Shown here: positions 1 to 9,836 of the stretch, one piece after another
Layout: each line of letters begins with the position of its first letter
Position numbering within the stretch: the first letter of the stretch is position 1
The notes under the pieces: generated by a model
Database searches by the model: none
What the model saw: the letters and a program-made list of their open reading frames with translations, nothing else
Told to the model about the DNA's origin: nothing
IMG/VR virus record: IMGVR_UViG_2541047798_000001
Reading direction: 5' to 3' (one strand)
Origin: a virus
Taxonomy: Duplodnaviria > Heunggongvirae > Uroviricota > Caudoviricetes
Length of the DNA: 9,836 nucleotides
Position numbers and translations under genes: made by a program

Positions 1-1239
1 ATGAGCAGGGCAATTCATAGACTTAGCGACACTCTTTTACGAAAATTAAGCGGATCACCAACCACAAAAAACACCTTTTTTAATGATGGTGGCAACCTTA
101 GCGTAAGGCATTCAACCAATGGCCTGTTAACCTGGTATTTCACTTACAGGGCCGGAACAGGCAGGAAGGTAGCCCCTGAACGTCTGAGGCTGGGAAATTA
201 TCCAGATTTGAGCCTGAAAGCAGCCAGGGAAAAAGCGTCGCAGTGTCGCGCCTGGCTTGCTGAGGGTAAAAATCCACGCCATGAGCTTAATCACACCGTA
301 CAGGAAGCGTTATCACCTGTTACGGTTAAGGAAGCGCTCACTTACTGGCTTGAATCGTACGCGAAGGAAAAGCGCACAGATTACGAATCTCTGAAAAGCC
401 GGATCAATACACACATAATCAGCCATATTGGTGCTATGCCGCTGGAAAAATGCGAGCTACGCCACTGGCTGACCTGTTTTGATCAGCTTGCTAAGCGTAA
501 TCCGGTATCAGCAGGATTTTTGTTACAGGTATGCAAGCAGGCGCTTAAGTACTGCCGCAAACGACGCTACGCAATTACCAACGTTCTAGATGATATGGTT
601 GTAGGTGATGTTGGGAAAAAAGCAGAAATAAGCGAGCGCATACTAACAAACAAGGAGCTTGGGGAATTACTCCGCGCCCTGGATGAAAAAATTTACCCAC
701 CGTACTACAGCGCCCTGATTCGCCTCCTGATTGTCTTCGGATGTCGTACCACTGAGCTAAGACGCTCTGAGGTCCAGGAATGGGATTTTAAAGAAATGCT
801 CTGGACCGTGCCGAAAGAACATAGCAAAACGAAGGTAGCAATATTCAGGCCAATACCGGAAGCGATCTTGCCGTTCGTAACGAAGCTGGTGGAGCAGAAC
901 AGGCACACGGGATTATTGCTCGGAGAACTGAAAGGGCAATCATCCGTATCAGAGTACGGAAGAACGGCACACAGACGTATTAATCAAGCCCCCTGGACGT
1001 TGCACGACATCCGGCACACGTTTACAACGATGCTGAACGATTTAGGCGTGGATCCTCATGTAGTGGAGCAGCTAACCGCGCACCAGTTGCCAGGAATGCA
1101 ACGAGTCTATAATCACTCCCGTTATCTTGATGCAAAACGTGACGCTCTTAATCTATGGGTTGAGCGTCTCGAGCTTCTCCAGAACAATGATGAAAAAATC
1201 GTTGTTATGACCCCGCGAATTTACTCCCAAAATTCTTGA
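1..1239 (+). CDS. int: Tyrosine recombinase / integrase, P4 (CP4-57) type
   Basis: 412-aa ORF. N-terminal arm-binding (DUF4102-like) region (GLLTWYFTYRAGTGRKVAPERLRLGNYPDLSLKAAREKA); C-terminal catalytic domain with HxxR box (LHDIRHTFTT) and catalytic Tyr context (VYNHSRY). Confidence 0.9.
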   Translation: MSRAIHRLSDTLLRKLSGSPTTKNTFFNDGGNLSVRHSTNGLLTWYFTYRAGTGRKVAPERLRLGNYPDLSLKAAREKASQCRAWLAEGKNPRHELNHTVQEALSPVTVKEALTYWLESYAKEKRTDYESLKSRINTHIISHIGAMPLEKCELRHWLTCFDQLAKRNPVSAGFLLQVCKQALKYCRKRRYAITNVLDDMVVGDVGKKAEISERILTNKELGELLRALDEKIYPPYYSALIRLLIVFGCRTTELRRSEVQEWDFKEMLWTVPKEHSKTKVAIFRPIPEAILPFVTKLVEQNRHTGLLLGELKGQSSVSEYGRTAHRRINQAPWTLHDIRHTFTTMLNDLGVDPHVVEQLTAHQLPGMQRVYNHSRYLDAKRDALNLWVERLELLQNNDEKIVVMTPRIYSQNS

Positions 1240-1247
1240 CAAATTAC

Positions 1248-1273
1248 GGCTATTTTTCTTGCGAAAAATAGCC
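1248..1273. repeat. Perfect 11-bp inverted repeat GGCTATTTTTC-ttgc-GAAAAATAGCC just 3' of the int stop; AU-rich hairpin, possible terminator or protein-binding site
   Basis: Read directly from sequence. No strong U-tract follows, so an intrinsic terminator role is uncertain. Confidence 0.4.
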
Positions 1274-1282
1274 CTCTAAAAT

Positions 1283-1315
1283 AAATCGTCGAATATCGGC
1301 AAATATCGACGATTT
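1283..1315. promoter_or_regulatory. Inverted repeat AAATCGTCGA-N13-TCGACGATTT in the AT-rich int-alpA intergenic region; candidate operator
   Basis: Perfect 10-bp arms read from sequence; lies in the ~410-bp AT-rich region upstream of alpA. Confidence 0.35.
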
Positions 1316-1648
1316 ATATGTGTCAAGTATTGAAAAAATTTGAAATGTCTTCTTCTGAGTTCTTATTCTCTGTTTCTTGATTGTTCCAACACCTGATGGT
1401 TTATCTATTTGTTTTTAATGAGATAATTTAAGTGTAATACCAAATGACGACATTTTTTTGTTGCGTCGCTTAAAAACTCGTGACACGATTTTATGAACAG
1501 CAGCAAACTCTAGCGAACTTTGACGAACATAAAGTTCAGAAAGGTTACGTATTCAATTTAAGAGGTAAGAAAAGCTAAGAAGTAATATCTTTCCGTATAT
1601 CCACAGCGAAACAAAAATTTCTATACGTAATTTTATGTAGGACTTTTT

Positions 1649-1858
1649 ATGCGCGAAATAAATGAAGATCGTGTAATCCGCGAAAAAGAATGCAGAGAGC
1701 TAACAGGCGTTTGCCGCACAACTCGTTACGAGATGGAAAAGCAGGGCCGCTTCCCCTCACGTATCAGTCTCGGCGGTCGTTCTGTTGGCTGGGTTAAGTC
1801 TGAGGTTATGGAATGGGTTAAAAGCAGAAATCGTATTAATTCAGGTAAGGCAGCGTAG
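1649..1858 (+). CDS. alpA: AlpA-family phage regulatory protein (excisionase-like HTH)
   Basis: 69 aa; SD AGGA about 6 nt upstream of the ATG; signature GGRSVGWVKSEVMEWV and preceding TGVCRTTRYEMEKQGRFP match the Phage_AlpA/Vis family; positioned directly after int as in P4-like and PICI elements. Confidence 0.85.
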   Translation: MREINEDRVIREKECRELTGVCRTTRYEMEKQGRFPSRISLGGRSVGWVKSEVMEWVKSRNRINSGKAA

Positions 1859-1884
1859 GGGGAACATATGACACATAAAACAAA

Positions 1885-1904
1885 GGCGACCTGTGGCGGT
1901 CGCC
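1885..1904 (-). terminator. GC-rich hairpin GGCGACC-tgtggc-GGTCGCC between convergent alpA and the minus-strand regulator; T-rich tract follows on the minus strand
   Basis: 7-bp perfect stem; on the minus strand it is followed by TTTGTTTTATGTGT; about 90 bp downstream of the minus-strand gene stop. Confidence 0.4.
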
Positions 1905-1992
1905 AATGGGAAAACACTAAACATAAGCCAGAACATCATAGCGATTTGCTGTCTGGTGGGCAATGTGCTCAGTGTGCTGGCTTGCTGGTGGG

Positions 1993-8466: not shown

Positions 8467-8478
8467 GCAGGGGAAACG

Positions 8479-8892
8479 ATGGCAACGAATGAAAGCATCA
8501 TGGCGCTACCGCTGGCGAGTAAATTTAAAGCAGAAGCGCGGGCAATGGCTGACAGAGGTTTATCAACCTACGAGGCCGTATATCAACTCAACAAACTGGA
8601 AGAACAGGACAAGCCGCGCGCTGATGCGATTATGGCGCTTCATGAACATAACGACTATCAGCCGCTGTTACGTGCAATGGCAAACGTGCCATGTATTAGC
8701 GTCGATAATGCTCGTGAAATCCTGAACATGACCATAGAGCAGGAGCGCCCAAAGGTTGCACCAGAGCTTACCGCAGCCTTTGAAAACTTTATGGACATGC
8801 ACAGCCCGCAAGCCGTATCAGCTGGCATGGCGTACGATGGCAGAAACCAGGGCGATGACGGCGACATCGATCGCATACTGAAAACCATCTGA
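8479..8892 (+). CDS. Hypothetical protein (137 aa), last gene of the capsid operon, adjacent to cos
   Basis: Good spacing and SD; acidic C-terminus; no recognisable family. The position next to cos makes it a candidate packaging-specificity factor, which is inference only. Confidence 0.5.
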   Translation: MATNESIMALPLASKFKAEARAMADRGLSTYEAVYQLNKLEEQDKPRADAIMALHEHNDYQPLLRAMANVPCISVDNAREILNMTIEQERPKVAPELTAAFENFMDMHSPQAVSAGMAYDGRNQGDDGDIDRILKTI

Positions 8893-8898
8893 GACAAG

Positions 8899-8922
8899 GC
8901 CGGAGAAATCCGGCTTTTTTTT
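8899..8922 (+). terminator. Rho-independent terminator after the capsid operon
   Basis: Stem GCCGGA / TCCGGC with GAAA loop followed by T8. Confidence 0.8.
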
Positions 8923-9125
8923 ACGGGTCCTTTCCGGCATATGGACCCGTTACGGGGCGGCGACCTCGCGCGTTTTCACTATTTATGAAAATTTTCCGGG
9001 ATCCATGTCCGGTTTCTCTGCAAGTTAACCATATGAAAAATATAAAAACATGCTTTCTATGAACCGGACATGCGCAAAAAACAGACACTAAAACCGGACA
9101 TCGTACCCGTTAACCGGAAGTGTGC
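8923..9125 (+). other. Lambda-type cos site 1 (cosQ-cosN-cosB, rightward): cosN 12-nt cohesive-end sequence GGGCGGCGACCT at ~8955-8966
   Basis: ACGGGTCCTTTCCGG...CCCGTTACG|GGGCGGCGACCT|CGCGCGTTTTCACTATTTATGAAAATTTTCCGG is near-identical to the lambda right-end/left-end junction as recalled. cosB carries a 10-mer AACCGGACAT once inverted (9005-9014), twice direct (9062-9071, 9092-9101) and a variant (9112-9121), with an AT-rich block between, mirroring the lambda R3-I1-R2-R1 layout. Confidence 0.8.
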
Positions 9126-9294
9126 AAAAATCACACGCATTGCTGCGCGTGATTAACAATTTATCGGCTTTACTGTTCTGTATAGGCTGGGTGGCGTCAT
9201 GCCGTAGCCGTTCTCCGTGCCAGCATGGAATAATCCGTAGTTACAGAGCGGTAAAGTTAAAAATCACTTTCTGTTACGCCATCAAATACGCGAT

Positions 9295-9521
9295 ACAACA
9301 ACCATGTGTTTTTACAAAACCATTTGATATCATTGAATTTTTTCACATTAATGACATCAAAATACATCGTAAGGTTGTTGTATTTATTTTATTTTTACCT
9401 TACTTATCAATTAGATATACCAAACAATTAAACAACAACCACCCCCTCAAAAAATCTCATAAATAGCGAAAAACCGCGAGGTCGCCGCCCCGTAACGGGC
9501 CATAATTCCAGGAAGGACCCG
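9295..9521 (-). other. Lambda-type cos site 2 in inverted orientation (leftward): cosN complement AGGTCGCCGCCC at ~9479-9490
   Basis: Reverse complement reads GGGTCCTTCCTGG...CCCGTTACG|GGGCGGCGACCT|CGCGGTTTTTCGCTATTTATGAGATTTTTT, very close to lambda cosN plus the proximal cosB. Distal cosB holds a different 9-mer, ACAACAACC / GGTTGTTGT, at ~9432-9440, 9373-9381 and 9295-9303. Confidence 0.75.
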
Positions 9522-9554
9522 ACGACACCAGACTATCAGAACGATGGGGGCACA

Positions 9555-9836
9555 ATGACAGAAGCCGAAATACTGGGATTAATCCGCCGCGTTGCCGGAA
9601 TCAGCCAGCAGGTTGACGAACAGGCCACGCAGCCGGACAGCGTGACCGCTGAAAATTATGCGCGTGTTGTTGCGGAGGTGATGCGCCGTGATGGTATAGA
9701 ACTTAATGGCGTGGATATGCGCAACATACGAACCAGAGTTCTTGAGTTGCTGGCCTACCGTCGCCGCGTGGAGATGTATCGGGAGAAGGAGAAAATAACG
9801 TACCACTGGAAGAAGCCGGAGCGGTTGCGGCGGTAA
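9555..9836 (+). CDS. Hypothetical protein (93 aa) immediately beyond the cos pair
   Basis: ATG at 9555 preceded by a GGGGG-rich SD; basic C-terminus (YRRRVEMYREKEKITYHWKKPERLRR); family not recognised. Confidence 0.45.
   Translation: MTEAEILGLIRRVAGISQQVDEQATQPDSVTAENYARVVAEVMRRDGIELNGVDMRNIRTRVLELLAYRRRVEMYREKEKITYHWKKPERLRR

Follow-up and report, generated by a model that had tools for sequence, protein, structure and literature searches.

The virus record IMGVR_UViG_2541047798_000001 (IMG/VR; Caudoviricetes) is a 9,836-nt stretch of DNA, which we call the window at its full length. On the basis of sequence comparison, we read the window as the core, from the int ATG to the last stop codon, of an 11.3-kb Escherichia coli phage-inducible chromosomal island (PICI) of the EcCICFT073 family. 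The explanation that best accounts for the observations jointly, and that we consider very likely, is an EcCICFT073-type PICI integrated at the 3' end of yljB, with a forward cos that mimics the cos of PhiR12-type helper phages. PICIs block their helper phages and spread genes for virulence and defence among strains of E. coli. The EcCICFT073 family is already well described, and this island is a further member of it, not a new kind of system.

The window starts at the ATG of the integrase gene int, as the preliminary description had stated, and ends at the stop codon of orf93. The layout proposed there (int, alpA, replication operon, iterons, ssb, capsid genes, cos) was found complete and in that order on the plus strand; all assigned genes are on this strand except for one small YlcI/YnfO gene. 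The cos site does follow the capsid operon, but it does not end the layout, as a second cosN (9479-9490, minus strand) and orf93 come after it. The gene order is that of the experimentally characterised PICI EcCICFT073, which runs int, alpA, a YlcI/YnfO gene (minus strand), an icd-like gene, a DUF4222 gene, the replication protein gene, a small open reading frame (ORF), ssb, perC, a small ORF, capsid, decoration, and ORFs of 137, 144 and 93 aa. The agreement extends from int to the last gene, with matches for 13 of the 14 window ORFs used as queries. It bears out the earlier view of a helper-dependent satellite and narrows its type, given before as P4-like or PICI-like, to a Gram-negative PICI of the EcCICFT073 type. 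The proteins of ssb, perC, orf68, capsid, decoration, orf137 and orf93 are 85-98% identical between the two islands, and both islands have two inverted lambda-type cosN (in cos1 and cos2 of EcCICFT073). In the five-component PICI scheme of SatelliteFinder (PMC10085698), four components are present (integrase, alpA, primase-replicase and capsid) and terS is absent; the island would be scored as 'Type B'.

The two islands differ in the attachment site (roxA/phoQ for EcCICFT073, yljB/clpS for the window type) and in the replication module, a 'DNA primase family' protein with other iterons in EcCICFT073 compared to a DUF927/Cch-like protein in the window. EcCICFT073 has rppA between its cos sites, whereas the window has only a 15-codon remnant and lacks the Rpp-responsive cosB of cos1. 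Finally, cos2 of EcCICFT073 is in the reverse orientation, while the cos2-type site of the window is forward and adjoins orf137.

The window matched E. coli chromosomes, best of all that of SCU-172 (98.5% identity over 96% of the window). In SCU-172 and in N10, the carrier of a sister island, the island is situated between cspD/yljB and clpS/clpA, with core genes on both sides and no tail, lysis or terminase genes in the flanks, which refutes the alternative of an intact prophage. Compared to the empty site of K-12, the insert in SCU-172 is 11,271 bp long. The island is bounded by an 11-bp direct-repeat core, ATGATAGTTAT, which is present in attL, in attR and, as a single copy, in the empty site of K-12; both att repeats are intact.

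attL: CGATAGATGATAGTTAT / TTATCAG
attR: TTATAAATGATAGTTAT / CTATCATG
attB (K-12): CGATAGATGATAGTTATCTATCATG

The extension to the flanks that had been proposed earlier (tRNA or att site, island end) was therefore productive: the attachment site is the 11-bp core at the 3' end of yljB, not a tRNA gene. A tRNA search of the window found none. The window falls short of the island by 173 bp 5' of int and by ~1 kb 3' of orf93. The GGTGTAGTTAAT motifs, repeated in both island ends beyond the window, including just upstream of int, are likely integrase arm sites. In the right end beyond the window (L001 18054-19087, L002 15876-17090) we also observed a ~120-bp repeat, with three tandem copies in N10 and one in SCU-172.

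The packaging region between orf137 and orf93 has these features:

8920-9103, plus strand: forward cos, with a cosQ-like element (8920-8935), cosN (8955-8966) and cosB
Forward cosB (predicted): R3-like inverted CCGGACAT at 9005-9012, AT-rich spacer at ~9028-9055, R2-like repeat at 9064-9071, R1-like repeat at 9094-9101
9186-9233, plus strand: rpp remnant, the last 15 codons (AGWRHAVAVLRASME) and the stop codon, preceded by an in-frame stop (tblastn and translation)
9372-9521, minus strand: reverse cos, with an exact cosN at 9479-9490 and an inner flank unlike that of the forward cos

The forward cosN is the exact lambda sequence GGGCGGCGACCT. The repeat CCGGACAT occurs three times in the forward cos and four times in the window, compared to 0.24 expected. 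The predicted cosB has the layout of the lambda R3-I1-R2-R1 array, likewise with one inverted repeat, an AT-rich spacer and two direct repeats. In a search of phage genomes, window positions 8924-9101 were 95% identical over 178 nt to the cos of the Escherichia phages PhiR12_1, PhiR12_2, PhiR12_4 and PhiR12_5, in which cos sits directly 5' of Nu1 and A. This match takes in cosQ, cosN, all three CCGGACAT repeats and the AT-rich spacer, and ends right after R1. An alignment of the window, EcCICFT073 cos2, PhiR12_1 and two more sequences was near-invariant from cosQ to R1 and divergent at once beyond. A lambdoid prophage in the chromosome of SCU-172 has this cos as well, matching the window at 166 of 177 positions, and its lambda-type head and tail module is complete.

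Helper specificity is set by cosB rather than by cosN, and the cosB here matches that of PhiR12-type lambdoid phages, not that of lambda itself. The preliminary description had deduced lambdoid helpers from the exact cosN, and this deduction holds. As would fit a separate cosB specificity, the Nu1 N-termini of PhiR12 and of the prophage adjacent to EcCICFT073 are markedly dissimilar. We infer that the forward cos is a direct mimic of the PhiR12-type helper cos and makes Rpp unnecessary, since the island would carry the helper's own cos and so attract the helper terminase. A similar logic is known for cos-type Staphylococcus aureus pathogenicity islands, Gram-positive PICIs such as SaPIbov5, which have a copy of the helper cos, no terminase subunit of their own and a capsid homolog, Ccm (PMC6092414). 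Their sequences and host, however, are unrelated, and they lack the two inverted cos of the window island. Small capsids result from Ccm, but the E. coli homologs have shown no capsid phenotype.

The forward cos is 94% identical over 267 nt to cos2 of EcCICFT073, with an orientation inverted relative to that in CFT073, and the comparisons suggest that the published 'cos2' is a native phage cos. In EcCICFT073, cos2 is reverse, with the flank GGGATCCATGTCCGGTTTC...AACCGGACATGCGC...AACCGGACATCG, while cos1 is forward, just 5' of rppA, and has a cosB recognised by the RppA-TerS complex (PMC6739421). The 144-aa protein of EcCICFT073 is Rpp, as it matches RppC of PDB entry 6HLK (5.3e-31). Only RppA residues 123-144 could be aligned to the window (9186-9251, 73% identity in tblastn). 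Pfam/PHROG and sequence comparisons revealed no terS in the window, and the Nu1-family gene of N10 is likewise missing from it. None of the ORFs of at least 20 aa between the cos sites was gene-like. For an AT-rich stretch of this cassette (9257-9372), homology was seen neither with EcCICFT073 and N10 nor with any of the phage records; the stretch holds a 36-aa ORF on the minus strand (9257-9367) whose reality is doubtful.

The two exact lambda cosN (8955, plus strand; 9479, minus strand) are inverted and 524 bp apart, and the arms that contain them (8924-8995 and 9450-9521) make up a 72-73-nt inverted repeat with 86% identity. The reverse cos showed 80% identity over 151 nt to the N10 cos that precedes the Nu1-like terS of that island, and no phage match past ~95 nt; it is probably an orphan here, or served in trans. 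The origin of the cassette by a simple inversion of the EcCICFT073 one was rejected, since the rpp remnant is on the plus strand after the R sites and further steps of both rearrangement and deletion are needed.

The N10 island has the same attachment site, DUF927 replication protein and iterons; 9 of the 13 matched ORFs have 100% identity, and int, orf106 and orf87 reach 97-99% identity to those of the window. At the position of the two-cos, gene-less cassette of the window, however, N10 has a single cos followed by the gene of a 180-aa TerS-like protein of the Phage_Nu1 family (Pfam 9e-23), for which no PDB sequence match was found. Rpp marks the studied cos-type subgroup and is not required of PICIs generally, because sister islands carry terS instead.

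The rpp-less cassette of the window was found with 97-100% identity in at least 11 complete genomes (14 with coverage of at least 80%), and the EcCICFT073-type rppA cassette in 53 genomes. Islands with the rpp-less cassette sit at three different sites (yljB/clpS, tRNA-Pro/yejO and rcnR/thiM) and encode one of three replication proteins; the isolates came from humans, chickens and a yak. Because the same cassette is present at three sites with different int and rep modules, its distribution implies a spread after the loss of rpp, rather than private decay. Four of the 11 genomes with this cassette are among the 70 records, from a set of 5,426 genomes, that have PhiR12-type cosB and Nu1 at an identity of at least 99%; 0.14 would be expected (hypergeometric P = 8e-6, uncorrected for strain relatedness), which speaks for PhiR12-type helpers.

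In strain 2012C-4221 (phoQ site, L010 1439-1648) we observed a 69-aa ORF 3' of a phage-type cosB, made of the first nine codons of a PhiR12-type Nu1 (VATQTEVAR) and of rpp codons ~78-144. By its sequence, this Nu1'-'rpp fusion is apparently a recombinant of phage and island at cos.

Several points weigh against PhiR12-type phages as helpers of a mobile island at yljB. The co-occurrence statistic is uncorrected for strain relatedness, and shared ancestry is possible for SCU-172, NCTC9112 and S1-CAM-02-A. PhiR12-type cosB with Nu1 is common anyway, being present in 1,141 of the 5,426 complete genomes, about a fifth. The annotation of the SCU-172 prophage marks its terL as frameshifted. The flanks, the att sites and the island size were read from the 98.5%-identical SCU-172 and not from the window's own contig. 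In experiments with EcCICFT073, efficient transfer by lambda and phi80 depended on RppA, and plasmids with cos2 alone were transferred only at a reduced level, with no response to Rpp (PMC6739421); for these reasons, the rpp-less island could simply be a poor mobiliser.

The same need for RppA would favor the view of the island as a decaying PICI remnant, no longer mobilisable, in which the loss of rpp ended preferential packaging and left vertical descent only. The reduction of rpp to 15 codons after an in-frame stop fits this view, as does the cassette itself, a rearranged mosaic with a palindromic junction, and the Nu1'-'rpp fusion of the sister strain 2012C-4221 looks like an intermediate. 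On the other hand, all other ORFs are intact, with ratios of nonsynonymous to synonymous substitution rates (dN/dS) of 0.04-0.39, and so are both att repeats; the forward cos is complete and of phage type, and three attachment sites harbor the cassette, in combination with differing int and rep modules and in human, chicken and yak hosts. We consider decay unlikely and prefer the reading of an island that relies on a mimic of the helper cos.

The segment between the two cosN was found in both orientations among related islands. For example, at the tRNA-Pro/yejO site the cassette of strain 135 (L011 11501-12167) is oriented as in the window, while that of STEC2018-607 (L007 9001-9598) is flipped. 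The flip is a precise one, with the outer halves of the arms (cosQ side) fixed and the inner halves (cosB side) exchanged, which places the crossover inside the shared 25-bp sequence CCCGTTACGGGGCGGCGACCTCGCG that contains cosN. In strain 135, both cosN copies (L011 11556-11577 and 12082-12103) share a G-to-T change (GGGCGTCGACCT), which suggests that the arms evolve in concert or have adapted to a helper with that cosN variant. Either short-homology recombination or terminase cutting of both inverted cosN would produce the flip. In a literature search, no paper was found that describes the inversion of a segment between the cos sites of a satellite; an article about lateral transduction (Sci Adv 2026) proved irrelevant to effects of cos orientation in PICIs.

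We tentatively propose, as an idea more doubtful than probable, that a sub-lineage has dropped Rpp in favor of an invertible two-cos cassette, in which one cos reproduces verbatim the cosQ-cosN-cosB of a common lambdoid helper and the other has a different cosB, with the helper terminase acting on the satellite as a site-specific invertase. If this is true, a terminase-released fragment with two identical cohesive ends would re-anneal either way, which would explain both the flip and the shared cosN mutation. The joining of phage and island cohesive ends would also give islands a route to new cosB specificities, and the Nu1'-'rpp chimera of 2012C-4221 would be a case of this.

The capsid block, separated from the PerC gene by two terminator-like hairpins, and the last gene of the island are as follows:

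6857-7063, plus strand: orf68, the first gene of the capsid block (phrog_3255, 8.4e-37); its stop codon overlaps the start of the capsid gene
7063-8118, plus strand: homolog of the lambda gpE-type major capsid protein, 351 aa (Pfam Phage_cap_E, 3.8e-49)
8131-8466, plus strand: homolog of the lambda gpD-type head decoration protein, 111 aa (Pfam HDPD, 1e-17)
8479-8892, plus strand: orf137, matching positions 494-567 of the 583 of phrog_53 (7.3e-10); terminator at 8896-8917
9555-9836, plus strand: orf93, the conserved last gene of the family (phrog_1561, 3.4e-57; dN/dS 0.13-0.32)

The capsid homolog is 45% identical to gpE of a lambdoid prophage and 95% identical to c1499 of EcCICFT073 (dN/dS 0.13-0.14), and the decoration homolog is 43% identical to a prophage gpD (dN/dS 0.09-0.15). 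In blastp comparisons, orf137 was 36-37% identical to residues 416-493 of two 501-aa gpC proteins, a part of gpC that we take, from what is known of lambda, to be the Nu3 scaffold-coding region. By sequence, orf137 resembles the C-terminal Nu3 scaffold part of a lambda-type gpC; a homolog of it is labelled 'head-tail connector' in one RefSeq record. The orf93 protein is 85% identical to its EcCICFT073 counterpart and 88% identical to that of N10. A blastp comparison of orf68 with lambda-type gpW, FI and FII gave no match, despite a length equal to that of gpW. Single-sequence AlphaFold (AF2) models had low confidence (pLDDT 64 for orf68 and 62 for orf93, the latter helical). PDB sequence searches with orf137 and orf93 returned nothing useful, and the two were rejected as Rpp homologs.

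With dN/dS of 0.09-0.39 across the capsid genes, the island retains homologs of shell, cement and scaffold under purifying selection, without portal or protease. Such retention is what a capsid-forming PICI (cf-PICI), which builds its own heads and takes only tails from the helper, would show. However, the head-module genes that define this class (portal, protease, head-tail adaptor or connector, terS and terL) were absent both from the 9.8 kb of the window and from the 11.3-kb island, and membership was rejected. In EcCICFT073, moreover, packaged DNA was phage-sized, and deletion of the capsid or the decoration gene left transfer and interference unchanged (PMC6092414); cf-PICI status is very improbable. 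The helpers in these deletion tests were the resident prophages of CFT073 for transfer and lambda for interference, with no PhiR12-type phage named (PMC6092414).

A P4-like satellite with a P2-type helper has next to no probability: although P4 shares an integrase, an AlpA/Vis-like regulator, an Icd-like gene, a cos of helper type and a large replication protein whose origin lies next to it, and although SatelliteFinder scores P4-like elements as three-component PICIs (PMC10085698), the gene content refutes this reading, since no ORF matches Psu, Sid, Delta or Epsilon (Pfam, PHROGs), there is no psu-delta-sid operon or epsilon, no match to the P4 alpha primase and no sign of a plasmid state, the capsid genes are of lambda E/D type, the cosN is that of lambda and not of P2 type, the cosB is that of lambdoid phages, and the gene order is that of EcCICFT073.

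The life cycle of the island can be outlined by analogy with its characterised relative. EcCICFT073 is turned on by helper-induced expression of alpA, and is mobilised by lambda and phi80, whose terminase packages it into phage-sized capsids; its uncontrolled replication on over-expression of AlpA depends on pri and int (PMC6092414). In the window island, an induced lambdoid helper would switch alpA on, AlpA would activate the rightward operons, and the island would excise. The DUF927 initiator/helicase would then fire the adjacent iteron origin, aided by the SSB of the island. The small terminase of the helper would bind the forward cos directly, by cos mimicry, in an island that has neither Rpp nor its own TerS. 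Following the EcCICFT073 model, the helper terminase would cut cosN and package the island DNA, probably as multimers, in helper virions.

The replication module and the genes next to it are the following:

3176-5314, plus strand: replication initiator/helicase (DUF927, Cch-like), 712 aa from the first GTG (DUF927 1.6e-48; Cch HTH_56)
5337-5652, no strand: putative replication origin, with 11 iteron copies of TAACCCGCA in both orientations
5673-5936, plus strand: orf87 (phrog_1231, 6.5e-52), overlapping the start of ssb; 83% identical to its EcCICFT073 counterpart
5933-6343, plus strand: SSB, 136 aa, with the C-terminus DDIPF (Pfam SSB, 4.2e-17)
6354-6602, plus strand: PerC-family regulator, 82 aa (Pfam PerC, 3.2e-35), followed by a terminator at 6625-6642

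The replication protein matched phrog_1139, 'DNA primase' (1.6e-190), and more weakly the SCCmec Cch1 helicase; its RefSeq start is 15 nt 3' of the first GTG. Only its residues 5-164 (window 3176-3670) match the EcCICFT073 primase, with 77% identity to the N-terminus of that otherwise unrelated protein. All 11 copies of TAACCCGCA in the window are within 5337-5652, the first ~20 nt 3' of the replication gene, compared to 0.10 expected; none of 200 shuffles reached 11. Among the islands compared, TAACCCGCA iterons are present only in those with a DUF927 replication protein (the window and N10), while EcCICFT073 has GGTAGAC-type repeats, so that the iteron type changes with the type of replication protein. 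On these grounds, the interval 5337-5652 is predicted to be the cognate origin of the adjacent DUF927 protein. The replication proteins of these islands are mosaics with a common N-terminal domain, which does not track the iteron type.

The SSB is 98.5% identical to that of EcCICFT073 (dN/dS 0.04). For EcCIMP1, another E. coli PICI, a PerC-like protein has been reported as a repressor of the expression of the locus of enterocyte effacement (PMC11773190), and for this reason the PerC of the window island may affect virulence regulation in the host.

The left part of the window contains the following features:

1-1239, plus strand: tyrosine integrase, 412 aa (Pfam Phage_integrase 1.4e-18, Arm-DNA-bind_3 7.9e-17)
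1240-1648, no strand: int-alpA intergenic region, AT-rich by composition (35-39% GC), with a terminator-like hairpin at 1248-1273 after int
1649-1858, plus strand: AlpA-family regulator, 69 aa (Pfam Phage_AlpA, 7.9e-18)
1993-2211, minus strand: small protein of the YlcI/YnfO family (NCBIfam NF041551, 8.8e-18), 68% identical to its EcCICFT073 counterpart
2372-2575, plus strand: Icd-like cell-division inhibitor, ~67 aa, with an uncertain start codon (NCBIfam phage_ICD_like, 1.4e-19)
2568-2888, plus strand: orf106 (phrog_15327, 5.2e-71), with no Pfam or PADLOC match
2895-3194, plus strand: DUF4222 protein, 99 aa (Pfam DUF4222, 1.4e-16), directly 5' of the replication gene as in EcCICFT073

The integrase is 99% identical to that of the N10 island, which uses the same site, and 77% identical to that of EcCICFT073; for AlpA the respective values are 83% and 61%. 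The interval 1240-1648 is presumed to be the promoter and regulatory region of alpA, because AlpA of EcCICFT073 autoactivates (PMC6092414). The annotations of SCU-172, N10 and CFT073 all have an Icd-like gene in this position. Conservation within the island is lowest in the interval from alpA to icd (window 1868-2372, L001 9868-10475), where the difference from SCU-172 amounts to ~217 bp; in the window a 235-aa ORF (1868-2575) spans this interval, of which only the last 67 codons, the Icd-like part, look genuine.

Scans of the window with Rfam gave no matches, and a PADLOC scan of the unknown ORFs found no defence-system match and no recognisable cargo. No tail, lysis, portal or large-terminase genes were seen among the Pfam and PHROG matches in the window. 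The promoter scan did no better than shuffled sequences (13 found, 12.8 expected).

The definition of the EcCICFT073 family gains little from this island, but a concrete helper prediction comes with it, the PhiR12-type lambdoid phages. The capsid, decoration and scaffold homologs are kept under selection despite published knock-outs that had no phenotype. If cos2 of EcCICFT073 is indeed a phage cos, islands of this family may hold two packaging specificities, swapped by recombination at cosN.

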